Of a stretch of DNA of 64,000 bases, positions 1,515 through 25,491 are shown piece by piece (position 1 is the stretch's first letter; each line of letters begins with the position of its first letter). This stretch comes from Nitrospirota bacterium. GTDB taxonomy: Bacteria > Nitrospirota > Thermodesulfovibrionia > UBA6902. A model generated the notes under the pieces. It was not told the DNA's origin. It saw nothing but the letters and a program-made list of their open reading frames with translations, and searched no databases. The DNA lies in contig JACQXG010000039.1 in assembly GCA_016208905.1 (NCBI GenBank), forward strand, positions 3,439 through 67,438, written 5' to 3'. The position numbers were made by a program, and so were the translations under genes.

Positions 1515-3044
1515 TTACGGAGATTTGTTTTTCTTCTTCAACCGCTGATTCAGCGCCTGACGCGTAATGCCCAGCAGCGAAGCCGCGCTTCCCTGGTTGT
1601 CGTCACAGCATTTCATGGCTTCGGAAATTATGTGGTCTTCCATTTCCTTTAAGGATGGGAAATGTCCGAATATCTTTTTTAAAGAAGATGAGTTTTCATC
1701 CTCAGGCATGGCCTCAGTTTGCGGCAGCGGCCGCCTTTGTTTTATGAACCCCTTGAAACTGTCCAGGGAAAGTTTCCCTGATTTATACTGCGCAACAGCG
1801 TCATGGACCATGGCCTGAAGTTCGCGGACATTTCCCGGGAACTGATAGTTGGAAAGCAGGGTGATGAGTTCAGGAGAAAGCACAGGCTGCTTCTTGTTCA
1901 TGGTGCCGGCTGATTCTCTAATGAAATGATCAAGCAGCAATGGAATGTCCTGAAGACGTTCGCGGAGGGGAGGAATGTGAATGTGATGCGCGCACAGCCG
2001 GTAATATAAATCATTGCGGAACGATCCCTTTTCTATCTGCTCCTGAATGTCCTGGTTTGAACAGGCGATGATGCGCGCGCCGCTTTTCTCCGGTGTGTCT
2101 GATCCGAGGGGGTAGTAAATCCTTTCCTCCAGCAGGCGCAGGAGCTTCACCTGTGATGATTTGTTCAGGTCGCCTATCTCATCCAGTAAAAGGGTGCCTC
2201 CCGAGGCGCGTACTATCAACCCTTCTCTGTCCTTGTCCGCCCCGGTGAATGCGCCTTTTTTATGGCCGAATAACGTATCAGAGAACATCGTGTCATCCAG
2301 ACCGGCCACATTAACGGCAATATATTCACCTTTCAATCCGCTTGCAAGATGGACTGACCTTGCAACCAGCTCTTTACCGACTCCGGTTTCTCCGGTTATG
2401 AATACCGGCTTCTGTGATTTTGCCACGGCCTCGATGTACTGGAAGATGGCCCGCATCTTTTTACTTTTCGTAATGATCGATGAAAAGGCCGCCTCATTCT
2501 CCAGTTCCCCTGTGAGAAGGTGTTTCTTGAGTGAGGTTATCTCTTCTTCCATCTGCTTGCGCTCAGTGATGTCCCTGACGATATGGATTACACCTATGAG
2601 CTGATTGTTGCCGTCAAATTGGGGCATGGCCCTTATCTCAAGGAATTTATTCAAATGGGGCTCGTACGTTTCAAAGGCGACCGGCTTCTCGGATTTAAGG
2701 CACTCGCAGCTTGGGCAGCCTTTGGGAGGGGAACTCTCTCCGTGGTAATGCTGATAACATTTTGCTGTTTTGGACTTTAAGAAAGGCAGCCCGAGAATTT
2801 TTTCTGCTGCCTTGTTGGCGTGTATGATATTGAAGTCTTTGTCGTGGACCGTGATCATGTCGGTTATGTTATTGAAGGTGTCCTCCCAGCTGTATACCGA
2901 TTGAAAGATCAGCTCGTCCGAGCGTGAATGTTCCCTTTCCATATCGGAAACAAGCTTCCGCATTTCTTCCAGCTCTTTTATAAGCTGTTCTTTTGTTTTT
3001 TCATTATCATTCATAATAATGTTTTTTCTGATGAATGCATCCAA
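1515..3044 (-). CDS. sigma-54-dependent Fis-family transcriptional regulator with N-terminal PAS domain
   Basis: Contains the AAA+ sigma-54 interaction domain (GETGVGKE Walker A and the GAFTGA motif) and a C-terminal HTH. A PAS-like region lies upstream. The track start is a TTG, and ATG at 3014 (MNDNEKTK) is an alternative start. Confidence 0.85.
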   Translation of the reverse strand: MDAFIRKNIIMNDNEKTKEQLIKELEEMRKLVSDMEREHSRSDELIFQSVYSWEDTFNNITDMITVHDKDFNIIHANKAAEKILGLPFLKSKTAKCYQHYHGESSPPKGCPSCECLKSEKPVAFETYEPHLNKFLEIRAMPQFDGNNQLIGVIHIVRDITERKQMEEEITSLKKHLLTGELENEAAFSSIITKSKKMRAIFQYIEAVAKSQKPVFITGETGVGKELVARSVHLASGLKGEYIAVNVAGLDDTMFSDTLFGHKKGAFTGADKDREGLIVRASGGTLLLDEIGDLNKSSQVKLLRLLEERIYYPLGSDTPEKSGARIIACSNQDIQEQIEKGSFRNDLYYRLCAHHIHIPPLRERLQDIPLLLDHFIRESAGTMNKKQPVLSPELITLLSNYQFPGNVRELQAMVHDAVAQYKSGKLSLDSFKGFIKQRRPLPQTEAMPEDENSSSLKKIFGHFPSLKEMEDHIISEAMKCCDDNQGSAASLLGITRQALNQRLKKKNKSP

Positions 3045-3203
3045 AGTCAGAGGAGGGTAAATTTAAAAAGTCATCTCGATACCTTAGCACAGCCTTAATA
3101 GTACAAAAAGATGCGAAAACGCCGCAGCAATTAAAACAGGCTGATGACATTATTTAATATCTTATCGAATTATGAATTTTAAAATTTACCCTCCTCTGAC
3201 TTT
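3043..3203. promoter_or_regulatory. 27-bp inverted repeat pair, with one mismatch, flanking about 107 bp in the divergent promoter region between the PAS sigma-54 regulator and the DUF1460-ampG genes
   Basis: aaagtcagaggagggtaaatttaaaaa (3043-3069) against ttttaaaatttaccctcctctgacttt (3177-3203). Confidence 0.7.
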
Positions 3204-3321
3204 ATTATTGTAAATAGATGATCAATTCTGACTTAAGTATAACCCATTACATGCTCTGGATAAAAGATCAATTAAAAGCGCAAGCAGGGCCAATATGATA
3301 TTTTATTAATGTTAAAATACC

Positions 3322-4053
3322 GTGGTCATGAAAGAACAGATTAATTTAGGCAAATGGACGGAGGAGGGATTGAGCCATCTTCTTAAAGAGGCTTCGGATA
3401 TAAGCAGTTCAGGCGGACGAATAGCCTTGCTTTCAAGACACTTCCTCAAAACAGCATACAAAGAATCCACGTTAATCGGAGACGTAAACAGCCCGGAGGT
3501 TTTTGTCATCAATCTTGAGGCTGTTGACTGCTTCACGTTTATTGACTACATCGAGGCGATGAGACTTTCAAATTCTTTCATCGAATTCAGGGAGAATCTT
3601 AATAAGGTGAGATACAAGTCCGGGATGATTGCCTATAAAAACAGGAACCATTTCTTTACAGACTGGCGGGAATTCAATTCCGGCATGGTCGAAGATGTAA
3701 CAGAGAAGATCAGTTACGGCAATAGCCAGAAGGTGGTAAAACGGTTAAACAGGAAAGACGACGGAACATATTTTCTTCCCGGCATTCCCGTTATAGAGCG
3801 GGAGGTTGTCTATATCCATTCAGATGCGATTGATGATGAAGTGATTGAGAATCTGAACACAGGTGATTATGTCGGGATGTATTCAAAAATAGAAGGACTG
3901 GATGTATCACATGCCGGTATTGTTATCAAAGAGCAGGATACAGTTAAATTGAGACACGCCTCATCATTGCAAAAGCACAGGAGGGTGATGGATGAGGATT
4001 TGAGAAAATACTTAAAGGGTAAGCCGGGGATAGTTGTGCTTAGACCAAAGTAA
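3322..4053 (+). CDS. hypothetical protein, possibly a DUF1460 / amidase-like domain protein linked to cell-wall recycling
   Basis: A 243-aa ORF lying immediately upstream of ampG in a cluster with nagZ. The family assignment comes from recall and genomic context, not from a diagnostic motif. Confidence 0.35.
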   Translation: MVMKEQINLGKWTEEGLSHLLKEASDISSSGGRIALLSRHFLKTAYKESTLIGDVNSPEVFVINLEAVDCFTFIDYIEAMRLSNSFIEFRENLNKVRYKSGMIAYKNRNHFFTDWREFNSGMVEDVTEKISYGNSQKVVKRLNRKDDGTYFLPGIPVIEREVVYIHSDAIDDEVIENLNTGDYVGMYSKIEGLDVSHAGIVIKEQDTVKLRHASSLQKHRRVMDEDLRKYLKGKPGIVVLRPK

Positions 4054-4054
4054 G

Positions 4055-4073
4055 GGCGGGGTCACCCCGCCCC
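4055..4073 (+). terminator. GC-rich hairpin after the DUF1460-like gene
   Basis: gggcggggtcaccccgccc. Confidence 0.5.
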
Positions 4074-4095
4074 TACAAGCAACATAAAAAATAAT

Positions 4096-5307
4096 ATGAA
4101 AATGCTTAAGGCAATCTTCAGCCGCAAGATGCTGGTCTCCTTCATCATGGGTTTTGCCTGCGGCCTTCCCCTTCTGCTGACCATTTCCGTTCTGCAGGCA
4201 TGGATGAAGGAAGAGGGCGTGGACCTGGCAGTAATCGGAATGATGGCGCTTGTGGGCCTTCCGTATACAGCGAAATTTATCTGGGCCCCCTTCCTTGACC
4301 GTTTCACCCTTCCTTTTCTGGGACGAAGAAGGGGCTGGCTCCTGATTGCCCAGACAGCATTGATTTTATCGATTGCCGGTCTTGGCATGACCAGTCCCGG
4401 AAAAAGTCCCTGGATGGTCGCCTTTGCAGCGTTTCTCGTTACATTTTTCAGCGCCTCACAGGACATCGTGGTTGACGCTTATCGCAGGGAGGACCTTACC
4501 GACTCAGAGCTGGGATTGGGGTCTTCTCTTTATGTGAACGGTTACCGCGTGGGGATGCTCCTGGCCTCAGGCGGCGGACTTATCATGGCAGACCACATGC
4601 CCTTCTCAATGGTCTATTTGATAATGGCGGCGTGCATGCTGCCCGGTGTATTAACAACCCTGCTTACTCCCGAACCTGATGCCCCGATGGGCACACCGAA
4701 AAACATGAGGGAGGCAGTTGTCGATCCTCTCGTTGAATACTTCAGCAGGCAGGGGGCCATATGGATGCTTGTGTTTGTCCTGCTCTATAAAATCGGTGAT
4801 ACCATGGCGAGCGCGATGACGACCCCCTTTTATCTTGATATCGGATTTTCAAAGACAGAGATCGGCACGGTGGTCAAGCTTTTCGGGTTCTGGGCGACAA
4901 TTATCGGAAGTTTGATCGGGGGGATACTCATGCTGAAGATCGGGATAAACCGGTCTCTCTGGGTCTTTGGTTTTTTGCAGGCCGTATCAACCGCCGGATT
5001 TGCTGTGCTGGCAAAGATCGGGCATAGCGTACCGGCCCTGGCAGGGGTCATTGCCTTTGAAAATTTAAGCGGAGGGATGGGGACCGCTGCATACACGGCG
5101 TTCATGGCAAGCATCACAAACAGGAAATTTACTGCTACACAATATGCCCTTCTGTCCAGCCTTATGGGTGTCCCCAGGGTCATGGCATCTGCGCCGACCG
5201 GATATTTTGCGAAACATCTGGGATGGGTGAACTTCTTTATCATATGTACATTGATAGCAATTCCAGGGATGCTGCTTCTTCTGAAGATTGCGCCGAAGAA
5301 GGATTGA
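4096..5307 (+). CDS. ampG: muropeptide MFS transporter AmpG
   Basis: The sequence GLPLLLTISVLQAWMKEEGVDL...GLPYTAKFIWAPFLDRF matches the AmpG signature. The protein is a multi-TM MFS transporter. Confidence 0.85.
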   Translation: MKMLKAIFSRKMLVSFIMGFACGLPLLLTISVLQAWMKEEGVDLAVIGMMALVGLPYTAKFIWAPFLDRFTLPFLGRRRGWLLIAQTALILSIAGLGMTSPGKSPWMVAFAAFLVTFFSASQDIVVDAYRREDLTDSELGLGSSLYVNGYRVGMLLASGGGLIMADHMPFSMVYLIMAACMLPGVLTTLLTPEPDAPMGTPKNMREAVVDPLVEYFSRQGAIWMLVFVLLYKIGDTMASAMTTPFYLDIGFSKTEIGTVVKLFGFWATIIGSLIGGILMLKIGINRSLWVFGFLQAVSTAGFAVLAKIGHSVPALAGVIAFENLSGGMGTAAYTAFMASITNRKFTATQYALLSSLMGVPRVMASAPTGYFAKHLGWVNFFIICTLIAIPGMLLLLKIAPKKD

Positions 5308-5363
5308 CAAGTTTTATTAAAGGATGTAGATTATTTCTGCTGATCAGGAAAGAGAGGCAGAGG

Positions 5364-5618
5364 ATGTCAAAATATTCCAGCACATTTAATAATGAATACC
5401 ATCCACGTTCCGGCCAGATCGCGGTAGAGCTCGGATTTATAACCGTAGACCAGTTAAAGGAAGCTTTATCAGAGCAGATTGACGATGACGTTTCCCATAG
5501 ACCGCACAGATTTTTGGTGGAGATTTTTTTTGCTAATGGTTGGATTACCCGCGAGCAGATTGATATTATCCTGGACGAGCTTTTCAAAGATGATATGAGA
5601 AGCAAAGGGAAATTGTAA
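5364..5618 (+). CDS. small stand-alone MshEN / T2SSE_N-like domain protein, a putative c-di-GMP binder
   Basis: An 84-aa protein starting at an internal ATG preceded by a GAGAGG RBS. RSGQIAVELGFITVDQLKEALSEQ fits the 24-residue MshEN motif RLGxxLLxxGLLxxxxLxxxLxxQ, and a second degenerate copy is FLVEIFFANGWITREQIDIIL. Confidence 0.55.
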   Translation: MSKYSSTFNNEYHPRSGQIAVELGFITVDQLKEALSEQIDDDVSHRPHRFLVEIFFANGWITREQIDIILDELFKDDMRSKGKL

Positions 5619-5620
5619 TA

Positions 5621-5686
5621 AGTGTCAGTGTCAGTGCATAGTGTCGGTTAATTTATTTCCTGACACTGTCACTAATAACTGACACT
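5621..5686. terminator. hairpin-forming heptamer-repeat element between convergent genes, likely a bidirectional terminator
   Basis: gtgtcagtgtcagtg ... cctgacactgtcactaataactgacact are inverted repeats, followed by a T-run. Confidence 0.5.
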
Positions 5687-5709
5687 TTTTGCGACCATTG
5701 GAACAGAGC

Positions 5710-7203
5710 TCACAATGAACCATTAAGGTCGACCGGCAATCTGCCCTGAAAAACGGCTTCCCCTCTCAGGCATTTAACAACAGAGGACTGCGCCTGCAAG
5801 GTGGTATCATATGCGGCAATGAGCGCGCCGGCTTCCATAAAATGCCTGAGCACATAAGGGCTGCCGAAAGATATCACGATTGAATGGCGGGATTTTTTAA
5901 TGATATCTCTGATTATATTTATTTCTTCATCCCTGATACCCGAACTTCCCTCCCATGCGGCTATTTTGGTAAAGAGCGCAACGATCAGGACTTCCCGCAG
6001 GGTCTCGCCTTTATAAGCCTTTATATTTATTGATCCCGGAATGAAGGTTTTAAGGACTGACAAATCATGTTTGCTCTCGTCGGCTGAGAATACAAGAGAA
6101 ATATTCTGAACGATCTTCAGGGAATGAAAGTCAGGTTTATTTTTAACGAGGGTCACCGATCTGCCGGAGATTGTATCGGAGAGCTTTTTATTTGCATGAT
6201 AGTCCGGCTGGACTTTCTGGATGCTCTTTATCCTGGCTTTGTATTGCAAAATCCGCTCTACGGCAGCGTCTATCTTTTCTTCCTTCATTTCACCGGATGC
6301 GACTGCGTGTTTAAGTTCTTTAACAACGGAGCCGGCATCTGCAGGATGGAGCAGGACATCGACTCCGGCATTTATGCACGTTGAAGGGACATTTTTGAAT
6401 TCCTTAAGCGCGTGCATGTTCAATGCATCTGTGAGCACAAGCCCTTCAAATCCAAGACCTGTTCTTAAAAGACCGGTTATGACCTTCTTTGAAAGAGATG
6501 CTGGGAGGTCATCAATGGCCGGGACTCTGATGTGTCCTGTCATGATACTGCTGACATTTGTTTTAATGGCTTCAATGAATGGAAATAAGTCTGTATCATT
6601 CAGCTCTCTGAAAGATTTCGAGATGACCGGCAGAGATATGTGGGAATCAATAGCTGTGTCCCCGTGTCCGGGAAAGTGTTTGGCGCAGCTTATTAGCCCT
6701 GTATTTTCCAGAGTCCTGATATACATCTTCCCATACCACGCTACAATCTCAGGATTGTCGGAAAAGGCCCTGGTGCAGATTATCGGATTATCGGGGTTCC
6801 TGTTTACATCAAGGACAGGGACCAGCGGCATATTGATCCCGATATCAATTGACTCGATAGCTATTGCCCTGATTGCATCTCCAAGGAGCTTTACACTTTC
6901 GAAGTCATGCCTGTCGATCGCTGCTGCTACAGCCATCTGCCCCGGGAAAGAAGTAGCCCCGTCTATTTGCTGCCCCACGCCCCTTTCTATGTCGGAGGCA
7001 ATAAATAACGGGATTTCAGAGATGGATTGCAGTTTAGCGATAAAATTTTTTATCTCATCTTTTTCACCGCCGAAGACTATGAAACCTCCGATCCCCTTTC
7101 GGACAAGCTCAACAGCATGTTCCGCATATGAAGATAAAGAAATCTTCTCTCCGTCAATCCTGCTGATGATGAGCTGGAAGAGTTTTTTATCAAGACCTGG
7201 CAT
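5710..7203 (-). CDS. nagZ: beta-N-acetylhexosaminidase, GH3 family, NagZ-like, with a C-terminal extra domain
   Basis: Carries the KHFPGHGDT...DSH GH3 catalytic motif and is 497 aa long. Confidence 0.8.
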   Translation of the reverse strand: MPGLDKKLFQLIISRIDGEKISLSSYAEHAVELVRKGIGGFIVFGGEKDEIKNFIAKLQSISEIPLFIASDIERGVGQQIDGATSFPGQMAVAAAIDRHDFESVKLLGDAIRAIAIESIDIGINMPLVPVLDVNRNPDNPIICTRAFSDNPEIVAWYGKMYIRTLENTGLISCAKHFPGHGDTAIDSHISLPVISKSFRELNDTDLFPFIEAIKTNVSSIMTGHIRVPAIDDLPASLSKKVITGLLRTGLGFEGLVLTDALNMHALKEFKNVPSTCINAGVDVLLHPADAGSVVKELKHAVASGEMKEEKIDAAVERILQYKARIKSIQKVQPDYHANKKLSDTISGRSVTLVKNKPDFHSLKIVQNISLVFSADESKHDLSVLKTFIPGSINIKAYKGETLREVLIVALFTKIAAWEGSSGIRDEEINIIRDIIKKSRHSIVISFGSPYVLRHFMEAGALIAAYDTTLQAQSSVVKCLRGEAVFQGRLPVDLNGSL

Positions 7204-7261
7204 GAGACATTATAAACTACTTAGCAAATAAAACACCCACCCGGTTTAAACCCTGAAAATG

Positions 7262-7330
7262 CATTTCAAATAATGCAGATGTTGGAAAATTAATTAATTG
7301 TCGATACCTTAAACGCAATATTCATTAATT
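7262..7330. repeat. 69-bp dispersed repeat, copy 1, lying 5' of nagZ
   Basis: Matches 17804-17872 at 65 of 69 nt in the same orientation. Confidence 0.85.
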
Positions 7331-7390
7331 TTATTTGATACGCATATCAGGCAGTAGACGGGAAGGGGGAAATATTATACGATTAAATTA

Positions 7391-8380
7391 ATGTCTGCCG
7401 GCCGGGACGATAAATTTACCGAGAGAAATTTGAGGGATATGATTGCGAATTGCGTGGACCCTGCGCGCGTGCCGAAAAGGATTAATATAATTACTGACAC
7501 ATCGGACTTTTTCAGGGTCGATTACGACGATGTTGTTATTCTTAACGGCCGTCCTTATTTTATCAGAAATTATGAGAAGGAAGGGCGTTTCAGCATAGAT
7601 GAGCAGCCGAAATTCTGGGTCAGGAGGGCGATTGACCTGCATGACGGGAGTATGAAAATTATTAAAATGGTTTTTCCTGAAAGATTCGATGCTAAAGTCG
7701 GCGATATAACTTTTGACTGTGTGCGAAGTCCTAAAAAAGAGGCCAGAATTCTTGAGTTGGTCAAAGGCCACCGGAATTTCATGCAGGGATTCAGCACCGT
7801 AGATTCAGCGGGGAATATCATAAGAATCGTTGATTATATCCCGGGCGTCGCGATAGATAACCTGGTATCAAAACTCGGCAAGGACCATGAAGACTATTTC
7901 TACAATCATTTTCTCACTGTATTTAACGATTATATCGAACTGGTAAAGGCCATCAAATTTCTTCATGACCACGGGGAGAAACACGGAGACATCAGACGGG
8001 ACCATATTATTAAGGACAAGCGCGACGGATTTTACCGGTGGATTGACTTTGACTATAATTACTGGCATAAAGAAAATATGTTCGGTTACGATCTCTTCGG
8101 GTTAGGCAACATCCTGATTTTTCTTGCCGGTCAGGGCGATGTTACCACGCAGCAGCTTGTACATAATGATCACCCTGTGCTGAACAATTTAACTGCTGAT
8201 GACACGAACATTATTTTCCGTAACAGGGTGGTCAATCTTCAAAAGATTTATCCTTACATCCCTGATGCGCTGAATTTTATTATGCTTCACTTCTCCAGGG
8301 GGACGGAGGTGTTTTACGATGATACAGATCAATTCCTGAATGATTTGCATGAAGCAGGGGATAAATTAGGTAATTCATAG
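7391..8380 (+). CDS. atypical protein-kinase-like (PKL) fold protein
   Basis: Has a catalytic-loop-like HGDIRRDHII (compare HRDLKPxN) and a DFG-like WIDFDY. Candidate beta3 Lys (MKIIK) and alphaC Glu (KKEARILEL) are present. There is no Gly-rich loop. Confidence 0.5.
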   Translation: MSAGRDDKFTERNLRDMIANCVDPARVPKRINIITDTSDFFRVDYDDVVILNGRPYFIRNYEKEGRFSIDEQPKFWVRRAIDLHDGSMKIIKMVFPERFDAKVGDITFDCVRSPKKEARILELVKGHRNFMQGFSTVDSAGNIIRIVDYIPGVAIDNLVSKLGKDHEDYFYNHFLTVFNDYIELVKAIKFLHDHGEKHGDIRRDHIIKDKRDGFYRWIDFDYNYWHKENMFGYDLFGLGNILIFLAGQGDVTTQQLVHNDHPVLNNLTADDTNIIFRNRVVNLQKIYPYIPDALNFIMLHFSRGTEVFYDDTDQFLNDLHEAGDKLGNS

Positions 8381-8447
8381 TGAATTCTATTCCAATGGTT
8401 GTAGACATGGAAGGCTGTGGAAGAATTTCTATACGACACCTCTAAAA

Positions 8448-8480
8448 AAGAGTTAAGAGTTAGGAGTAAAGAGTTAAAAG
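8448..8480. repeat. heptanucleotide tandem repeat array (agagtta-type)
   Basis: Reads agagttaagagttaggagtaaagagttaaaag. It is enclosed by a long-range inverted repeat, 8411-8422 against 8551-8563. Confidence 0.7.
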
Positions 8481-8616
8481 AAGAAAAACAATATGATTGC
8501 TATGAAGCAAAAATCTAATAAGTCGTTTGTCGATTATAGAAATTCTGGAACAGACTTCCATGTCTGCTGAAAGATATCAAATAAAATTTAAGATATTTGA
8601 TGACTAATAACATAGT

Positions 8617-9120
8617 TTGGAAAGGGGGAAGGCTTTGGAAAATAACAACGCGGGGAATTCTGATTTACTAAAAGACAGACACGTCCTCATCGCGCTGGAT
8701 GAGTCGGAAAATGCTAAAAGGGCGCTTCTTTATGCAGCGGATTTTCTTGGGGGTGTGCCGGGATTTCGCGCCACTCTTCTCAGTATTATCCCTGAACCGC
8801 CTGAAGATTTTTTTGGCACGGATAAAGACCGTCAAATGTGGATAGAAGACCAGCATTTCAAGGCAAAAGAGATGCTCGATAAATACCGCCGGATACTTAT
8901 TCAATCCGGGTTCAGTGAAGATAAAGTAGAAGTCCTTATTGATGTCAAAAATTGCCCTTCTGTTGCGGAATGCATACTCGAGGAGCAAAGGAAGCTTGGA
9001 TGCTGTACGGTTATCGTAGGGCGGAGAGGAATATCAAAGACAGAAGAATTTATGTTCGGCAGCACTTCCAGCAAAATCCTGCATGCCGGGAAAAACTGTG
9101 CTGTATGGGTAATCGGATAA
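8617..9120 (+). CDS. universal stress protein (UspA family)
   Basis: Shows the USP fold signature ...VIVGRRGISKTEEFMFGSTSSKIL.... The start is TTG, and an AAGGGGGAAGG RBS precedes an alternative TTG at about 8635. Confidence 0.75.
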   Translation: MERGKALENNNAGNSDLLKDRHVLIALDESENAKRALLYAADFLGGVPGFRATLLSIIPEPPEDFFGTDKDRQMWIEDQHFKAKEMLDKYRRILIQSGFSEDKVEVLIDVKNCPSVAECILEEQRKLGCCTVIVGRRGISKTEEFMFGSTSSKILHAGKNCAVWVIG

Positions 9121-9125
9121 AGTGA

Positions 9126-10670
9126 TTAATTCTCTTTTTCTTCTATCCCGTATTTCTTCATTTTATACCCGATCTGCCTCGGGGTAATGCCGAGAAGACG
9201 CGCTGCCTTTGCATGAATCCAGCCTGACTTTCCCAGGGCATTAAGGATATTGGCCTTTTCAAGTTCCTCGATATTTGCTGTTAAGGATGATAATTTGTCG
9301 GAATTTTTCAAACGGCATATATTCATAGATACAGGCAGATCTGTCGCGGTTATTATATCTGAACCGGACATAACAACGAGCCTTTCAATAGTGTTTTCAA
9401 GCTCTCTTACATTACCTGGCCAGTGGTAATGTATAAAAACCTGCAAAGCGCTTTTATCCATGACCACGAAGCGGACGTTTTCTTCATTGAATTTATGTAA
9501 GAAATGTTCAATGAGGATTGGTATGTCCTCTTCTCTTTCCCGCAGTGGAGGTAAGAAAAGCGGTATCACATTAAGTCTGAAATAGAGGTCTTCCCGGAAT
9601 TTCCCCTGCGATACCAGGTTTTCAAGGTTGCGGCTTGTTGCGGTAATTATCCTGACATCAACCTTCAGTGTCTTTTCACTGCCTATCCTCTCAAATTCCC
9701 TTTCCTGCAGGACACGCAGGATTTTCGGCTGAAGCGCTGTGGGCAGGTCTCCTATTTCATCAAGGAAAATGGTCCCCTTATTTGCAAGCTCGAACTTGCC
9801 GCTTCTGGAGGAAACGGCCCCGGTAAAGGCCCCTTTTTCATGTCCGAAAAGCTCTGATTCTAAAAGTCCTTCGGGAATTGATGCGCAATTAAACTTAATA
9901 AAAGGCCCTTTGTTCCTCTGGCTCATGTAATGGATTGCTTTGGCGATCAGTTCTTTCCCGGTTCCGCTTTCACCCCGCAAAAGTACGGTTGCCTTTGAAG
10001 GAGAGACCCTGTGGACTGCCTTAAAAACCTCCTGCATCCTGTCAGAGTCGCCGATAATGTTATCAATGCTGTATTTGCCTTTTAACTCTCTCTTTAAATG
10101 CTCCTTTTCTTTTTCGATCCGCTCATAGCTTTCCCATAATTTAATAAACTGAGCTATTAATGAAGCCACGATTTCCAGGACCCTGAGGTCGTCATCGACG
10201 TTCCCCTTTTTTTCCGAATAAATCCTGTCAACGCTCAAAACTCCAAGCACTTCATTTTTAAGCTTGATGGGTATGCACAGGAAAGAAATACCGTCTTTTT
10301 CCGGCCTTGCCCCGGTCTTGTTCAGAAACAAAGGCTCTTTCCCGATATTGGGAATTACCATAGGTATCTTTTTTTCCAATACCCGGCCTACTATCCCTTC
10401 ACCAATCCGGTATTTACCTTTCTCGATATTATCTTTTGTAAGACCATGTGCCGCAACAATGCGGAGTTCCCCTGAAATCTTGTCGAGCAGAAATACGCAC
10501 CCCCTCTGCATTTCAAGCAGGCTCCCGATTGTCGACATTACTGACGACAGGTTTTTCTCAAGGGCAAAAGAGGTGGTGAGGACCTTGCTGACCTCAAGAA
10601 TGGCAGTCAGTTCCCTGTTTTTCTGGAGGATGAGGTCGGTTTTTCTATTTTTATCCGGGACGGATTTCAT
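9126..10670 (-). CDS. sigma-54-dependent transcriptional activator with N-terminal GAF domain (NifA/FhlA-like architecture)
   Basis: Has a GAF-like N-terminus, an AAA+ domain with GESGTGKE and GAFTGA, and a C-terminal HTH. It is divergent from the radical-SAM locus. Confidence 0.85.
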
Positions 10671-11036
10671 TGGCTAACACAAATAAATATATTGGAAAAA
10701 AACAGCGCATTATATTCATACTCAATGAATATAATGAGTTTTTTATTTATTCATCTTGAGAATAAATAATACTAACATCAGGTCAAAGCTTATATCAACT
10801 AAAGGTCCTTATATTACTTAAAGAGTATGGGTTAACACTATAGGTCACCATTGCCGGGTTTATGGATGACGCTTTGATTATTAATTGTGAAATATATGTA
10901 TGAAACGGTATAATAAAAAAGTTGAAATTCAATATAGCTGTAGAAGTTATATTCATATCCACTAGGGAAATTCATAGGAAAGAAAATTAACGCTGCATAC
11001 AACACATAAGTGCAGCTATTTTTTAACGGAGATTTT

Positions 11037-13448
11037 ATGGCAAAAGGTTGTTGTGACACAGGGAGAGAACAGCGTATTAAACAATACGATCTTACTGCAT
11101 GGTCTATTGCGGACCCTAATATTAAGGCTTTTAATTCTGATGATGTCTTATACTCCCCTGAATATTTAAAGAAACAAAAAAACGGTATATCTCTTTTTAT
11201 AGACCCTAAGTCGCCAAACTGGATCAGTGTAAATGAGACAGGGGCTGAGGTCATTAAACTTTGTAACGGCAAACGTGCGCTGTCTGATATTCAGGACTAC
11301 ATTTGCGATAAATATAAGGTAACGAACAAAAAGGAAGTCAGAGATGAAATCTCAAAATTCCTGAGCGCAGCAAGATTACTTGAATTCGTATCAAATACCC
11401 AATTTGTAAGACCTGAATATAAGGGAAGAAGCAGTGCGATTGCCCCCCATAAATTAGATGAACTCTGGATATATTATACGCTTGCCTGTAACCTCAGATG
11501 CAGGCATTGTCTTGTAAGCGCCGGAAAAGGCCTGCGAAAGGAATTGACCAATGACGAATTCAAGAAGGTCATAGACGATTCAATTAAGTTAGGGGTTAAA
11601 CGGTTTTACATTACAGGAGGTGAGCCGTTTATAAAAGAAGGAATATTTGACCTTATTAAATATATTACAAAAACAAAAAAACGTGAACTTATTGTTCTTA
11701 CTAATGCCACTCTTTTTGATGACAAGAAAATAGGAGCCTTGAAGAAGTTAGTCAGTCCCAAACTCCTTTTACAGGTCAGCCTTGAAGGCCCGAATGCGGA
11801 AATTCATGACGCGCTTCGCGGGAAAGGCAGTTTTGATAAGGCTGTAGAAGGTATCAGAAAATTAATAGACATAGGTATCACTCCTATTGTTTCAACGGCC
11901 ATCAGTAAGTTGAATGAGAAAGATATTGCAAAAACTTCCCGCTTTCTGTCAAAGCTTGGCATCCAGGAACATAATGTCCTATGGATGCATGCAAAAGGAC
12001 GGGGCGCGAGTAACTTAAGTGATTTATATGTGCCTTCCGATGATATTGCACGGGCGATGAAAAGACTTAAAAAGGAATATAAAGAGAAGGAGATGATATT
12101 TGATAATGTCGAATCATTGAAAGTCCGTGTCAGGACAAAGAGAGGAAGGAAAAATGACCTGTGCAATAACTGTTATGAAAAAATCTGTGTGAATTCTGAC
12201 GGCAATGTATATCCGTGTGCTTCACTCAATGGTGACAAAAATTTCAATGCAGGGTCCGTCCGTAACAAATCACTTAAAGATATCTGGCTGAATTCGAAGG
12301 CCATGGAAAGAGGCAGGAAAAACAGTGTTCAGGACAAACCGGAATGCAGGGATTGTTATCTTGAGTACTTCTGCGGCGGCGGATGCACATCTCATAGTTA
12401 TTATGCATCGGAAGTAGATACAGGAAAGGGGTCCGTCAAGGCCCTTGATCCTTATTGCTCGACGTATAAAGCATTGTTTGAGGACATTATCTGGGAGCTG
12501 GCTTCTGAGGGAGTTACGCCCCAAAGCGGAAAAGGCTACACTTCTCCTCTGGTTTATAATGCTATGGATTCAAAACTGCCCGGTCATCTTGGCGCAGGGA
12601 TTAAATCAATAGATAAGAATTTTGAAGTAGGGTGCTACCATTGTTCATGCGTGCTGTCGGTTGACGTTGAAGATGATGAAGAAGTTTGCAAACCTGAGAT
12701 AAAGGGACATGTGACCAAGACGGTGAAAAAGAAGTTTTCTAAAGCCGCCTATAATCCTGTAGCTGATTACTACTGTCCTACGGGTTACGCTCCCAATGAC
12801 CTGGCGCATATACCGAATGAAGTGCTCGATGTTTCTTATGGATGCGGCAATCCTGCTGCGCTTGCAGACATTAAAGAGGGGGAAACAATCGTTGATTTAG
12901 GCGCAGGTGGCGGCATTGACTGCTTTATTGCCGCGAAGAAGCTCGGGGATAAGGGCAAGGTAATCGGGATAGACATGACCGATGAAATGCTGGAAAAGGC
13001 AAGAGAAAGTGCGAAGAAAGTTGCAACGGTCCTGGGGTACGACATTGTCGAATTCAAGACAGGAAATATCATGGATATGCCTGTTGAGAGCAATTCGGTT
13101 GATCTGGTCATATCCAACTGTGTTATTAATCTTACTGAGGATAAGGCTAAAGTATTGAAAGAAATATATCGAATATTAAAACCAGGAGGGAGGTTTATTA
13201 TTTCGGATATTGTTTCGGATAAACCTGTTCCCGGATATTTAAAGAGAGACAAAGAACTGTGGAATGCATGTCTTTCAGGAGCTCTCACCGATAGTCAGTT
13301 TGAGGCAGTAGCAAAAAATGCCGGGTTCTCCAGTGTAAATATGACGAAAAATTACCTTTATAAGAAAGTTGAATATATAGAGTTTTATTCAATAACCTTA
13401 AAAGGGAGCAAACCACAGGAAGTCAATTGCTGTTGCTCCTGCAGTTGA
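11037..13448 (+). CDS. multidomain fusion: PqqD-like RRE, radical SAM, SPASM and arsenite-methyltransferase (ArsM/AS3MT)-like SAM-dependent methyltransferase
   Basis: The start is refined to ATG 11037, preceded by a GGAG RBS. The RRE reads NETGAEVIKLCNGKRALSDIQDYICDKYKV...ISKFLSAARLLEF. The rSAM cluster is CNLRCRHC, of CX3CX2C form. Cys-rich SPASM segments read CNNCYEKICVNSDGNVYPC and CRDCYLEYFCGGGC. The C-terminal MT domain has YGCGNP, DLGAGGGIDC, ISNCVINL, LKPGGRFIISD and WNAC, conserving the three AS3MT catalytic cysteines. The protein begins MAKGCC and ends CCCSCS. Confidence 0.8.
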   Translation: MAKGCCDTGREQRIKQYDLTAWSIADPNIKAFNSDDVLYSPEYLKKQKNGISLFIDPKSPNWISVNETGAEVIKLCNGKRALSDIQDYICDKYKVTNKKEVRDEISKFLSAARLLEFVSNTQFVRPEYKGRSSAIAPHKLDELWIYYTLACNLRCRHCLVSAGKGLRKELTNDEFKKVIDDSIKLGVKRFYITGGEPFIKEGIFDLIKYITKTKKRELIVLTNATLFDDKKIGALKKLVSPKLLLQVSLEGPNAEIHDALRGKGSFDKAVEGIRKLIDIGITPIVSTAISKLNEKDIAKTSRFLSKLGIQEHNVLWMHAKGRGASNLSDLYVPSDDIARAMKRLKKEYKEKEMIFDNVESLKVRVRTKRGRKNDLCNNCYEKICVNSDGNVYPCASLNGDKNFNAGSVRNKSLKDIWLNSKAMERGRKNSVQDKPECRDCYLEYFCGGGCTSHSYYASEVDTGKGSVKALDPYCSTYKALFEDIIWELASEGVTPQSGKGYTSPLVYNAMDSKLPGHLGAGIKSIDKNFEVGCYHCSCVLSVDVEDDEEVCKPEIKGHVTKTVKKKFSKAAYNPVADYYCPTGYAPNDLAHIPNEVLDVSYGCGNPAALADIKEGETIVDLGAGGGIDCFIAAKKLGDKGKVIGIDMTDEMLEKARESAKKVATVLGYDIVEFKTGNIMDMPVESNSVDLVISNCVINLTEDKAKVLKEIYRILKPGGRFIISDIVSDKPVPGYLKRDKELWNACLSGALTDSQFEAVAKNAGFSSVNMTKNYLYKKVEYIEFYSITLKGSKPQEVNCCCSCS

Positions 13449-13486
13449 GAAATGAGTTTAAATATAAACAAGAGAGGTAGAGATAA

Positions 13487-14968
13487 ATGAGAGTAACTTT
13501 GGTTAACGCACAGGTATTGGACGGCAATAATGTCGTACCCCCTTTAGGGCTTATGTATATCGCTGCCGTATTGGAAAAGGCCGGACATGCTGTCCAGATA
13601 TTTGATTCCGACCCCGAATACCAGGATACCATGCTTAAGGAGATAAAGGAATTTAATCCTGAATTGATAGGATTAAGTTTCCTGACAGTAGCCTATCAGA
13701 GGGCATTTAACCTTTGTAAGACTTTAAAAAAGGAACTGCCTGATGTTACATATTGTGCAGGAGGAGTGCATACAACAGTTAAACCTCATGATACCTTAAA
13801 AGAATTCGACCTCGATTTCATTGTTATTGGAGAAGGTGAAGACACTATAGTTGAAGTATGTGAGAAACTTGCAAAGAAAGAAGGCGTTGCGGGGATAAAG
13901 GGAGTTATGTACCGTGAAAACGGTGTAATTATTGAAAACGAAAAACGTGATATGATTACTGATCTTGATACCATCCCGTTTCCTGCAAGGCACTTAATAG
14001 ATATGAAACCCTACCTGAAGCCGCCGGGAATTATAAGGGGCTATGCTGAAAAGAACCAGACTACCATTGTTACAAGCAGGGGTTGTCCGTTCAAGTGTAT
14101 CTACTGTGGCAGTCATAACATATTTGGCAGAAGGACAAGAAGACGCTCCGTGAAAAATGTTGTTGACGAGATAGAACATCTGGTCAAGAATTACGATATG
14201 AAGGGTATATATTACTGTGATGATACGTTTACTCTCAGCTCCAAATGGGTAAAAGAATATTGTGAAGAACTGAAGAGGAGAAATCTGAATATTAAATGGG
14301 CTTGCCAGTCAAGGGTGGACCAGACCGACAGGGAATTAATGCAGAGAATGAAAGATTCCGGGCTGGTACAGCTTGACTTTGGCGTAGAAAGCGGTTCTGA
14401 AAAGATCCTCAAAGTGCTGGGCAAAGGCGGCGCCGGCGACAGGACATCACAGATAAAACAGTCTTTTAAACTTTGCAAGGAGCTGGATATCAGGACCCTT
14501 GCAACATTTATTATTGGTAATCCTACAGAAACAAGAGAAGATATAGAAGAAAGTTTTCAGGTAGCAAAAGAGATTGATGCCGATTACACAGCTTTTTATT
14601 TCCTGACTCCTTATCCCGGGACGGATATATATAACATGGCCATTGAAAATGGGTGGCTTGACCCTCACGTCCCGTTCTCAGAGATATGGGCGCACAGGCA
14701 GCCGGAGCTCCCATTGATGGCTATAACATTCGGCAAGGAAGAACTCCGGGATATCCGCAGACACCTGCAGAACCAGTTTTTTGTAAAAAATTATCTCAAG
14801 GCTTCGAGCAATATCAGCTTCTACTCGATACTGTTCAGCATTATCTTCAGGCATCCCAAAGTTATTCTGGATTGTCTTGGTAAACTAATCAGGACCCGAA
14901 GAATTGATTATATCGTTGAGACACTTAACGCGGAATACTGGCGGATGAAAAAGTACGAAGGGGCCTGA
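13487..14968 (+). CDS. B12-binding domain radical SAM protein (class B rSAM methyltransferase-like)
   Basis: Has an N-terminal cobalamin-binding-like Rossmann region, an rSAM cluster CPFKCIYC, and a ~16-18-nt gap after the fusion gene with an AGAGGTAGAG RBS. Confidence 0.8.
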   Translation: MRVTLVNAQVLDGNNVVPPLGLMYIAAVLEKAGHAVQIFDSDPEYQDTMLKEIKEFNPELIGLSFLTVAYQRAFNLCKTLKKELPDVTYCAGGVHTTVKPHDTLKEFDLDFIVIGEGEDTIVEVCEKLAKKEGVAGIKGVMYRENGVIIENEKRDMITDLDTIPFPARHLIDMKPYLKPPGIIRGYAEKNQTTIVTSRGCPFKCIYCGSHNIFGRRTRRRSVKNVVDEIEHLVKNYDMKGIYYCDDTFTLSSKWVKEYCEELKRRNLNIKWACQSRVDQTDRELMQRMKDSGLVQLDFGVESGSEKILKVLGKGGAGDRTSQIKQSFKLCKELDIRTLATFIIGNPTETREDIEESFQVAKEIDADYTAFYFLTPYPGTDIYNMAIENGWLDPHVPFSEIWAHRQPELPLMAITFGKEELRDIRRHLQNQFFVKNYLKASSNISFYSILFSIIFRHPKVILDCLGKLIRTRRIDYIVETLNAEYWRMKKYEGA

Positions 14969-15180
14969 ACTGAAGATAAGTAATAATGAAGAAATGGTGT
15001 TGAAATGCAACGAGTTTTCTTTTTATGTCGGAATTCCTTACTCTTGGCATAGAATTTTACATTTTAACCAGGGCTTGAATTATAGGTATCTTTGAAAATC
15101 AAGGACTTTAACATGAGCATAAGTTTTGCATATTTTAATAGGGATTAAATCAATCCAATTTACTATAATGCATTTAGGAT

Positions 15181-15549
15181 ATGCAGATGATTCGAAATAG
15201 GGTAGTGAAGACCGTTGAAATGGAAAAAAGGCGTTCCCAGAGGAAACCTGTGAGTTTAGACGCAGAAGTTTCCTTTGACGGTAAGAATTATCCCGTATAT
15301 ATAGAAAACATTTCCGAGTATGGATTACATGTGATAGCTGCTGCCGGGAAGAAAGCAGTATCTATTGTACCTGAGATGATACTTAAGCTCGAATTTCAAC
15401 CTCCTGCCGGGGAAAAAACAGACCTGCATTACGAGGTAAGATGGGTGCATATCAATAAAACCCCGATACATGGACTGACATACAGAATGGGTATGGATAT
15501 ATCAGATCAATTTTCAGGGCATAAAGACCTTCTTAACATTCTGGAATAA
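15181..15549 (+). CDS. PilZ domain protein (c-di-GMP receptor)
   Basis: Carries the RRSQRKP (RxxxR) and ENISEYGL (D/NxSxxG) PilZ motifs. Confidence 0.8.
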   Translation: MQMIRNRVVKTVEMEKRRSQRKPVSLDAEVSFDGKNYPVYIENISEYGLHVIAAAGKKAVSIVPEMILKLEFQPPAGEKTDLHYEVRWVHINKTPIHGLTYRMGMDISDQFSGHKDLLNILE

Positions 15550-24495: not shown

Positions 24496-25491
24496 ATGTC
24501 TGATAAGGACCGTGCGAAGGCGCTTGAAGTTGCCATATCGCAAATAGAAAAGCAGTTCGGCAAAGGCGCTATTATGCGTCTGGGCTCAGAGGGAGTAGTA
24601 GAGATTCCTGCTATTCCGACAGGCTCTATCGGGCTGGATGCAGCCCTCGGAGTAGGCGGTTTTCCAAGAGGGAGGGTCATCGAAATTTACGGCCCTGAAT
24701 CTTCCGGGAAAACGACCCTCGCGCTTAGCGCCATCGCGCAGGCCCAGAAGGCAGGGGGAGCAGCAGCTTTTATTGATGCGGAACACGCGCTGGATGTATC
24801 CTATGCAGGAAGACTCGGGGTCAATATTAATGACCTGCTTATCAGCCAGCCGGACACCGGTGAACAGGCCCTGGAAGTCACTGAAACATTAGTCCGCAGC
24901 GGGGCAATTGATATCATAGTTATAGATTCAGTCGCGGCGCTTGTCCCGCGGGCGGAGATTGAAGGTGAAATGGGTGACAGTCTGCCGGGGCTTCAGGCAA
25001 GGCTTATGAGTCAGGCTTTAAGAAAACTCACCGCTGCTATTTCAAAGGGGCAGACAACGGTCATCTTCATCAATCAGATAAGAATGAAGATAGGGGTCAT
25101 GTTTGGAAATCCTGAAACAACGACCGGGGGAAACGCGCTCAAGTTTTATTCCTCAGTACGGCTTGATATCAGGAGGATTGAAGGCCTAAAAAACGGCCAG
25201 GAATCAATAGGCAACAGGGTGAGGGTAAAGGTTGTAAAAAATAAAGTCGCGCCTCCTTTTAAACAGGCGGAATTTGATATATTCTTTAATGAAGGGATTT
25301 CAAGGCTTGGCGAGCTTGTTGACCTCGGAATTGAGAAAAAAATAGTAGAGAGGGCGGGCGCATGGTATTCTTATAAAGGCAACAAGATAGGACAGGGTAG
25401 AGAAAATGCAAAGGAATATCTCAAGTCAAATCCTGAAATAGCAGGGGAGATTGAGACAAAAATACTTGAGGAATATAATTTTAAGAGGTAG
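24496..25491 (+). CDS. recA: recombinase RecA
   Basis: Has [12 protein letters not shown] Walker A and is colinear with RecA. Confidence 0.97.

Follow-up and report, generated by a model that had tools for sequence, protein, structure and literature searches.

The stretch of DNA considered here, hereafter the window, comprises 64 kb of a Nitrospirota genome (assembly GCA_016208905.1, contig JACQXG010000039.1). It contains a locus of four genes that encode a GAF/sigma-54 activator, a fusion protein that joins radical S-adenosylmethionine (SAM) and ArsM-type methyltransferase domains, a B12-binding (class B) radical-SAM enzyme, and a PilZ protein (Table 1). All four genes exist, together with the domains that an initial annotation, made from the sequence alone, had named for them, and every domain call exceeds the respective Pfam gathering score. 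This score is used to judge domain calls throughout, and family assignments are judged by the NCBIfam cut-offs; residue numbers refer to the fusion protein of the window.

The initial annotation described a compact locus of four genes. We find that the real functional unit consists of two, the fusion gene and the B12 radical-SAM gene: only these are co-conserved, the sigma-54 activator and the PilZ gene are not. A scan of one genome per GTDB species, with flanks of up to 10 kb, yields 55 loci with relatives of the fusion, all but four of which are titled as Nitrospirota-type metagenome-assembled genomes (the remaining ones are two Deferribacteres and two 'Bacterium BMS3'). An orthologue of the B12 gene (more than 60% identity, tblastn) is found 26-262 nucleotides (nt) downstream of the fusion gene in 49 of the 49 loci with visible DNA, so that the proposed tight linkage of both genes is borne out; eight other loci are left out of this count, as the contig ends or is N-masked before the position of the B12 gene. 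Full-length relatives of the fusion protein (66-100% identity) number more than 120 and carry generic annotations; their source labels are nearly all Nitrospirae, Nitrospiraceae or Thermodesulfovibrionia. The mean column identity of the fusion among 51 orthologues is 76%. Selenocysteine variants were considered and rejected: what look like truncations of the fusion in loci L040, L047, L048 and others arise where a contig stops or is filled with N, and no in-frame TGA codon is involved.

Two details of the gene models differ from those initially given. The start of the fusion gene, previously set to a GTG at 11010, is moved to the ATG at 11037 (MAKGCC..., ribosome-binding site ACGGAG), because all orthologues open with M-A/G-x-x-CC. 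The stop codon of the fusion gene occupies 13446-13448 and the ATG of the B12 gene is located at 13487, corresponding to a spacing of 38 nt and no overlap. The B12 gene does possess its own ribosome-binding site (GAGAGG), as had been noted, but the gap is not the ~16-18 nt assumed, and translational coupling of both genes is not supported. The two genes probably form one operon.

Table 1. Features of the locus, with positions counted from the first letter of the window and scores in bits.
Feature	Position	Strand	Basis
GAF/sigma-54 activator gene	9126-10670	-	Pfam Sigma54_activat 247.9, GAF 55.7, HTH_8 48.7
Sigma-70-like promoter candidate	10885-10914	+	TTGTGA, 18-nt spacer, TATAAT; 10/12 consensus; ~120 nt 5' of fusion start
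Fusion gene, 803 amino acids	11037-13448	+	Pfam PqqD, Radical_SAM, SPASM, Methyltransf_31
Fusion: N-terminal extension, ~45 residues (MAKGCCDTGR...)	11037-11171	+	C6 invariant, C5 nearly invariant (alignments A1, A3)
Fusion: PqqD-like recognition element, residues 55-113	11199-11375	+	PF05402 34.9 (cut-off 23.4)
Fusion: radical-SAM core, residues 146-304	11472-11948	+	PF04055 92.3; CX3CX2C = C151, C155, C158
Fusion: SPASM auxiliary-cluster domain, residues 376-474	12162-12458	+	PF13186 42.1 (residues 376-441)
Fusion: linker motif GCYHCSCVLS...C, residues 533-551	12633-12689	+	H535, C538 conserved family-wide ('HSNCVLS' in distant homologues)
Fusion: ArsM/AS3MT-type SAM methyltransferase domain, residues 574-777	12756-13367	+	PF13847 (Methyltransf_31) 122.4, residues 612-753
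Fusion: C-terminal Cys-rich tail CCCSCS, residues 798-803	13428-13445	+	Present in 14/16 orthologues (A1)
B12-binding (class B) radical-SAM gene, 493 amino acids	13487-14968	+	B12-binding (PF02310) 85.0, residues 15-124; Radical_SAM (PF04055) 85.8, residues 194-358; motif CPFKCIYC
PilZ gene, 122 amino acids	15181-15549		PilZ 39.2

Domains and conserved residues of the two proteins

Profile search against Pfam confirms that the proposed architecture of the fusion protein is real: a recognition element (RRE) of the kind named after ribosomally synthesised and post-translationally modified peptides (RiPPs) is followed by a radical-SAM core, a SPASM domain and an ArsM-like methyltransferase domain. 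The first ~30 residues of the N-terminal extension have no counterpart in the aligned distant homologues, whose alignments begin at query residues 31-50. In the AlphaFold model the RRE consists of strands (37-65) and helices (67-114) with a predicted local distance difference test score (pLDDT) of 83-95, and phmmer places residues 53-340 of the fusion on SkfB. The cysteines of the SPASM domain (376, 379, 384, 394, 437, 440, 446, 450 and 474) are invariant in 51 Nitrospirota sequences. In a cross-phylum alignment of 24 sequences (A2), the linker residue C538 shows no variation and H535 is retained in at least 90% of the sequences; both are candidate metalloid ligands near the radical-SAM domain. 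A C-terminal xCC tail is also found in distant homologues of 820-850 residues, and by analogy to the RCCLKC tail of ArsL the Cys-rich C-terminus may be an As(III)-binding element. The model is of medium confidence, with a mean pLDDT of 72 and values below 50 in both tails and in the linker region 545-581, and it gives no docking position for the Cys tails.

The methyltransferase domain bears a DLGAGGG motif of the SAM-binding GxGxG type and has the fold of a class I SAM methyltransferase. An HMMER alignment to the sequences of the CmArsM structures 4fr0 and 4kw7 places C603, C695 and C745 on C72, C174 and C224, the ligands of As(III). These three cysteines are invariant in 16 (A1) and in 51 orthologues, and in 24 cross-phylum homologues each of them is either invariant or conserved to at least 90%. 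A further invariant cysteine, C580 (YYCPTGY), lies 23 residues before C603, with E(L/I)CCP at this place in distant homologues; the structure alignment stops short of it, and it is a possible counterpart of C44 of CmArsM, on which the first methyl transfer to inorganic As(III) depends. A phmmer search of the PDB with the domain retrieves 5evj and 4fr0 with E-values of 1e-33 to 1e-37, and stand-alone ArsM-like proteins are 44-55% identical to it. Foldseek searches with the AlphaFold model likewise retrieve SuiB, SkfB and CteB for the N-terminal part and ArsM/AS3MT structures for the C-terminal domain (33-38% identity, root-mean-square deviation 3.1-3.6 Å). The domain is a genuine ArsM type in sequence and predicted fold, and methylation of As(III) is its predicted activity.

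The B12 partner gives matches to several families, all of them below the respective cut-off. The best NCBIfam matches are BchE (218.8 bits, cut-off 481), HpnJ (205.5) and ApyD (176.3), followed by the P-methyltransferase family of Sden_1168 (164.3), the PhpK family (127) and the RiPP C-methyltransferases of TIGR03975 (107). The ArsL model NF040542 is matched with 74.3 bits (cut-off 450), and the C-terminus of the protein (...RMKKYEGA) has no cysteine and hence no RCCLKC tail. The best solved chains are AprD4 (6fd2, E-value 1e-30 over half the protein) and 9ccb (1e-18). Orthologues are 64-97% identical and carry generic names only.

Distant homologues and their neighbourhoods

A full scan of 1.84 billion representative proteins retrieves colinear homologues of the fusion at 31-48% identity (31-54% if identity to either the window protein or to P0126 is counted), and the distant clusters named by source are 'Elusimicrobia' and 'Deltaproteobacteria bacterium GWC2_42_11'. 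The distant fusions occur in three layouts: radical SAM followed by methyltransferase (~720-850 residues); radical SAM, methyltransferase and a DUF5714 domain with similarity to MbdU-like metal-binding selenoproteins (~1000-1080 residues); and methyltransferase followed by radical SAM (P0134). The distant members retain the CX3CX2C motif, whose cysteines C151, C155 and C158 are invariant throughout the wider family, as well as the ArsM cysteines and the H/C motif of the linker. Most of the distant homologues keep the SPASM domain, with its cysteines replaced by Gly, Ser or Asp (CNNC to GNAG, FCGGGC to LxGGGD). We note that the degenerate SPASM domain correlates with clades that sit in arsenosugar-type clusters.

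The genomic contexts of these homologues were compared by clustering the neighbours of 33 distant loci using blastp, and two further loci were inspected. A protein matching TIGR04283, 'arsenosugar biosynthesis glycosyltransferase' (225.5 bits, cut-off 182), forms one cluster with members in L062, L072, L083, L087 and L107. A TIGR04282-like protein (128.4 bits, cut-off 134) forms one cluster with members in L063, L083, L107 and L129, and a DUF2064 gene lies beside the homologue in L144. MerA/Lpd-like disulfide reductases are found beside the homologues in five loci (L063, L065, L083, L085, L088). The context in L061 includes an ArsP_1 permease, and that in L059 an ABC transporter of the phosphonate type. 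L087 harbours an MTR-kinase-like gene and, immediately downstream of the homologue, a MIP channel, a member of a family that conducts arsenite. A PHO4/PiT transporter is directly adjacent to the homologue in L058 and L067; in the Nitrospirota, PhoU_div and PHO4/PiT genes come after the pair in four loci (L002, L021, L024, L032). Rhodanese and CCG-dicluster proteins neighbour the homologues in L087, L088 and L143, and membrane proteins of the DedA/VTT and LPG_synthase_TM families likewise recur among the neighbours of the distant homologues.

As a side observation, a recurring set of accessory genes in L062, L087, L088 and L143 consists of rhodanese, CCG-dicluster, C_GCAxxG_C_C, DedA/VTT and LPG_synthase_TM proteins together with a sterol-desaturase/OlsE-like hydroxylase, where the CCG-dicluster protein scores 208 bits to NF045663 ('dicluster-binding protein'). 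Its composition points to a product linked to membranes or lipids.

In L099 (metagenome contig Ga0315277_10002061, 2685-11070), an archaeal-looking locus by virtue of a TFIIB-like gene (445-1395) recognised by eye, the module occurs unfused. Here, a radical-SAM/SPASM gene (6938-7984, 29% identity, E-value 3e-34) adjoins an ArsM gene (8045-8794, 44%). A B12 radical-SAM gene (2685-3986), 36% identical to the partner in the window, lies 3 kb upstream, and a second B12-like radical-SAM gene is located at 9457-11070. Among the loci examined, the B12 partner accompanies the fusion in the Nitrospirota clade and is present, at the identity given, in L099; a B12 gene near the 'Deltaproteobacteria' homologue L060 was rejected as an orthologue, being only 26% identical. 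The occurrence of radical-SAM and ArsM domains as fusions in three layouts, and as adjacent genes when unfused, argues that the radical and the methyl-transfer steps act consecutively on the same substrate.

Possible substrates of the pair and its flanking genes

With moderate confidence, we propose that the pair, carried by uncultured anaerobic Nitrospirota, makes or converts an organo-arsenic compound or a close analogue based on another soft metalloid. The confidence in any single chemical step is much lower than the confidence in such a substrate. Two precedents guide the interpretation. ArsS appends a 5'-deoxyadenosyl group to dimethylarsenite (bioRxiv 10.64898/2026.04.29.721666). ArsL moves a 3-amino-3-carboxypropyl group onto As(III), its Cys-rich C-terminal tail RCCLKC holds As(III), and both ArsS and ArsL work together with ArsM (bioRxiv 10.1101/2024.02.01.577332; 10.64898/2026.04.29.721666). 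From gene order, domain identities, residue conservation and the contexts of homologues, all of which are observed, we infer each chemical step of the following scheme. As(III) would be held by thiolates of the triad C603/C695/C745, with C580 and the linker residues H535 and C538 as further candidates, and the two Cys-rich tails at the N- and C-terminus would serve as delivery arms for arsenic. The ArsM domain would methylate the bound As(III) with SAM, and the fused radical-SAM/SPASM domain would then form a C-As bond, or otherwise alter the arsenical, via a SAM-derived radical. Fusion of both activities in one chain would allow a toxic intermediate to be channelled. The B12 partner would methylate the intermediate at least once, either on an unactivated carbon or on its arsenic centre.

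A more specific version of this proposal is possible, albeit tentative: subsurface sulfate-reducing Thermodesulfovibrionia may make a new organoarsenical, either a small molecule or an As-bearing adduct of a peptide or protein, by means of a third, independent type of C-As-forming radical-SAM enzyme (SPASM/RRE, two auxiliary clusters, fused to ArsM), followed by cobalamin-dependent radical methylation. For the latter step, we know of no precedent in arsenic biochemistry.

Several observations weigh against an arsenical or metalloid substrate. The fusion misses the arsenite methyltransferase model NF008823 by 10 bits (253.5 bits, cut-off 263), with a match that covers model positions 38-236 of 272. 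No arsR, arsC, acr3 or arsenosugar-glycosyltransferase genes are seen beside the pair, either in the window or in the Nitrospirota loci. A tblastn search of the Nitrospirota loci with eight context proteins of the distant loci finds PiT in four loci only, as well as one weak TIGR04282-like match, 7 kb away in L047. A census of 114 non-redundant neighbours of the Nitrospirota pair yields no ars family and nothing recurrent beyond the families already known, among the 25 of 150 families listed, so that single ars genes may be present. The families TIGR04282 and TIGR04283 are themselves named from genomic context, and neither has, as far as we know, been tested biochemically. In addition, the RRE and every SPASM cysteine are preserved in the Nitrospirota fusion, as is typical of enzymes that modify peptides, and the function of this fusion may differ from that of the clades in arsenosugar clusters, where the SPASM cysteines are mostly lost. 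None of the close relatives of the B12 enzyme is characterised, tetrapyrrole genes are repeatedly found next to the pair (about 10 loci), and the very high conservation of the fusion, together with a constitutive-looking promoter, fits a housekeeping role equally well.

Rather unlikely, in our assessment, is a RiPP-like maturase of peptides or proteins. The RRE would in this case bind a precursor encoded elsewhere, or the Cys-rich N-terminal extension of the fusion itself, the SPASM domain would crosslink or epimerise, the B12 enzyme would C-methylate the peptide, and the methyltransferase domain would methylate a Cys-rich core. Such a role is consistent with the presence and invariance of the RRE, the CX3CX2C motif and the complete set of SPASM cysteines, with SkfB, CteB and SuiB as the closest solved sequences or folds for residues ~30-490, and with the matches of the B12 gene to the RiPP enzymes ApyD and TIGR03975; the conserved Cys-Cys extension could be a substrate in cis. 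The best radical-SAM match of the fusion in NCBIfam is the sactipeptide maturase StsB, but this score, as those of other maturase models, is far below the cut-off (StsB 150.4 of 625 bits, WgkB 131.6 of 650, AlbA 105.3 of 850, MftC 128.2 of 265). The key element of a maturase system, a co-encoded precursor, is not found. The open reading frames (ORFs) of at least 20 residues in the intergenic region include no plausible precursor, the clusters formed by 985 small ORFs from the 2.5 kb around the pair (52 loci) do not extend past close relatives, and a scan of the whole window for small ORFs that are Cys-rich or preceded by a ribosome-binding site yields no plausible precursor either, in agreement with the earlier statement that no precursor ORF is visible in the flanks. 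A maturase would also leave the strict retention of the As(III)-binding cysteine triad unexplained, and in other phyla the homologues belong to clusters of the small-molecule or glycosyl type and not to RiPP clusters. From the list of substrates in the initial annotation, the organo-arsenic or metalloid compound gains real support from the active-site cysteines of ArsM and the contexts of distant homologues, and the peptide is left without a precursor.

Quite unlikely is the same chemistry on another thiophilic substrate, that is, an antimony, selenium, tellurium or sulfur centre, which sequence does not separate from arsenic. The specifically named contexts (TIGR04283/TIGR04282, ArsP_1 and the MIP channel) point to arsenic, and the structurally characterised relatives are all As(III) enzymes. 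Other centres are suggested by matches of 162-171 bits to the ArsM-like selenoprotein families ArsM_AhpD_UU, ArsM_DUF2284_UU and MTase_UXPK_star (whose substrates are not assigned), by the DUF5714/MbdU-like metal-binding domains fused to distant homologues, by the rhodanese and CCG-dicluster neighbours described above, and by a TerC-family neighbour in one Nitrospirota locus.

Highly unlikely is a tetrapyrrole or cofactor pair, in which a SPASM domain like that of AhbD or NirJ and a B12 enzyme like BchE would act on a haem, sirohaem or corrinoid intermediate. The corresponding genes lie beside the pair in at least three arrangements. In L029, L031, L033 and L034 a gene for a CobA/HemD fusion lies upstream in divergent orientation, and in L022 it lies downstream and is read in the same direction as the pair. 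A block of MobB-like, CcsA(HemX), HemA and HemC genes takes the upstream, divergent position in L035, L037, L039 and L052 and the downstream, co-directional one in L057. A SirC-like gene is 4 kb away in L002. These genes could reflect functional coupling, for example the supply of cobalamin, or the synteny of the core genome: hem genes are core genes, and their proximity to the pair within one phylum could be inherited. The NCBIfam scores for NirJ2 (135.6 bits), AhbD (127.5) and BchE are two- to fourfold below the cut-offs and generic for the superfamilies, no role in the chemistry of tetrapyrroles is known for a cysteine triad of the ArsM type, and the distant homologues show no tetrapyrrole context.

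The two remaining genes of the locus are neighbours with no demonstrated link to the pair. The activator is, as annotated, NifA-like (585.4 bits on TIGR01817 nifA, cut-off 528.85) and transcribed divergently from the fusion gene across a shared intergenic region of 366 nt (10671-11036); no nif genes are found among the approximately 30 annotated ORFs of the window. It is divergent and adjacent in 18 related loci in addition to the window, including the distant loci L043, L045 and L055 (fusion only 63-64% identical), but absent in about 29, among them L003, whose fusion protein is 96% identical to that of the window. The activator also travels together with a peptidoglycan-recycling-like block that is syntenic in L043, L045, L055 and L056 and unrelated to radical-SAM chemistry, and for this reason its position looks like inherited synteny; the activator may be part of this block and not of the radical-SAM unit. 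A search of the intergenic region for the sigma-54 element TGGCAC-N5-TTGCW with up to two mismatches yields no match, and neither the window nor any of about 50 orthologous loci has an acceptable GG-N10-GC site ahead of the fusion gene; control of the pair by the activator is therefore not supported. The PilZ gene begins 212 nt past the B12 gene, and the gap contains promoter-like sites of its own. An orthologous PilZ gene follows the pair in the window and in L003 only, and the PilZ genes in L013 and L026 are unrelated and located on the opposite strand at a distance of 1-2 kb. A four-gene system, with a NifA-like activator that drives the pair from a sigma-54 promoter and a PilZ protein that ties it to cyclic di-GMP, is extremely improbable given these patterns of occurrence.

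The sigma-70-like promoter candidate (Table 1) is weak, since such sites are no more numerous in this AT-rich region than in shuffled sequence. Many orthologous loci (L007, L008, L010, L013, L021, L029, L030, L045, L046, L057) keep the AT-rich inverted repeat TGTAAA-N5-8-TTTAC directly 5' of the ribosome-binding site of the fusion gene. In the window (~10990-11030), this repeat has diverged and is accompanied by a GCTGCA...TGCAGC palindrome. The repeat could be an operator or a hairpin in the 5' untranslated region.

With respect to the remainder of the window, the block associated with the activator (3322-7203) consists of an AmiA-like amidase, an MFS transporter and a GH3 NagZ-like hydrolase. 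Another enhancer-binding protein of the sigma-54 type, encoded at 1515-3044 on the minus strand, carries a PAS sensor domain in place of GAF and groups with the NifA-like activator by blastp. Genes for an M50 peptidase, DUF2062, ThiL, Lon and GalU follow further downstream of the locus and reflect ordinary synteny of housekeeping genes. A nearby gene with an AIRS domain was considered as SelD and rejected: it is ThiL (273 bits, cut-off 184), without a link to selenium. The region 20844-64000 is ordinary chromosome, with genes for GalU, RecA (24496-25491), a PilT-like ATPase, ResB (39661-41100) and a LonB-like protease (48936-51404), as well as a P-type ATPase (37469-39427) with no recognised metal-binding domain; cell-wall and division genes (PBP transpeptidase, Mur ligase) begin at about 54.6 kb. 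An Rfam scan of the whole window at the gathering score gives zero matches, neither to a riboswitch or other RNA element nor to a tRNA.

Relation to known arsenic and radical-SAM systems

The initial annotation was aware of no described system with this combination of domains. No NCBIfam model reaches its cut-off for either the fusion or the B12 partner, and a full-text literature search, whose coverage does not extend to subscription journals, found no description, consistent with this statement. It had also raised the possibility that homologues belong to an ArsS/ArsM arsenosugar pathway of the same architecture. The logic is related and the architecture is not shared, such that the finding is narrowed rather than refuted. 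The pair shares with ArsS/ArsM the functional coupling between a radical-SAM enzyme and a methyltransferase of the ArsM type, and the distant fusion homologues adjoin the same accessory genes, TIGR04283 and TIGR04282. The fusion differs, however, by an RRE and SPASM scaffold that is related to sactipeptide maturases, and by both activities residing in one polypeptide. ArsS is a radical-SAM protein with a Cys-rich, C-terminal DUF3641 domain; DUF3641 is not among the 23 Pfam families listed for the fusion, and ArsS is not among its best 25 NCBIfam matches. A further difference is that the Nitrospirota clade lacks TIGR04282 and TIGR04283 neighbours, apart from the weak match in L047, and has an obligate B12 partner instead.

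A second comparison is ArsL/ArsM of arsinothricin synthesis, which has the same two-enzyme logic of radical C-As bond formation and methylation by ArsM. ArsL and the fusion both bear Cys-rich terminal sequences, RCCLKC in the former and CCCSCS as well as an N-terminal CC in the latter, and the B12 partner is distantly similar to the ArsL model. The score of 74.3 against 450 bits implies, however, that the B12 partner is not an orthologue of ArsL; moreover, the Cys tails are located on the fusion and not on the B12 protein, and no arsQ-type permease is found nearby. The pair therefore resembles ArsS/ArsM and ArsL/ArsM in logic and is a member of neither.

Beyond arsenic, the first 490 residues of the fusion share domain order, cluster cysteines and predicted fold with the RiPP maturases SkfB, CteB, SuiB, AlbA and StsB, which differ by their co-encoded precursor, by matching family models that the fusion stays far below, and by having no arsenic-type methyltransferase domain. 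The B12 partner shares the N-terminal B12-binding domain and the radical-SAM core with class B enzymes (BchE, HpnJ, PhpK-type, TsrM, TokK), among which the P-methyltransferases provide a precedent for methylation at a pnictogen centre. In contrast to these, the partner reaches no model cut-off, and the matches do not assign a reaction type. As judged from sequence, the pair would represent a third architectural solution to the coupling of radical-SAM chemistry to ArsM, with a clade-specific cobalamin-dependent step.

To our knowledge, ArsS and ArsL are the only radical-SAM routes to C-As bonds, and both are found in aerobes or phototrophs. The origin of organoarsenicals in anoxic aquifers and sediments, where the mobility and toxicity of arsenic matter most, is poorly understood. 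The fusion is present in at least 55 species-level genomes of Nitrospirota from groundwater, deep-subsurface and hydrothermal samples, with relatives in other uncultured lineages. With respect to enzyme evolution, a peptide-maturase scaffold (RRE and SPASM) has apparently been recruited to metalloid chemistry, with the SPASM cysteines kept in one clade and lost in others. A radical-SAM/ArsM fusion would provide a directly testable gene candidate for the organoarsenicals of anoxic environments.

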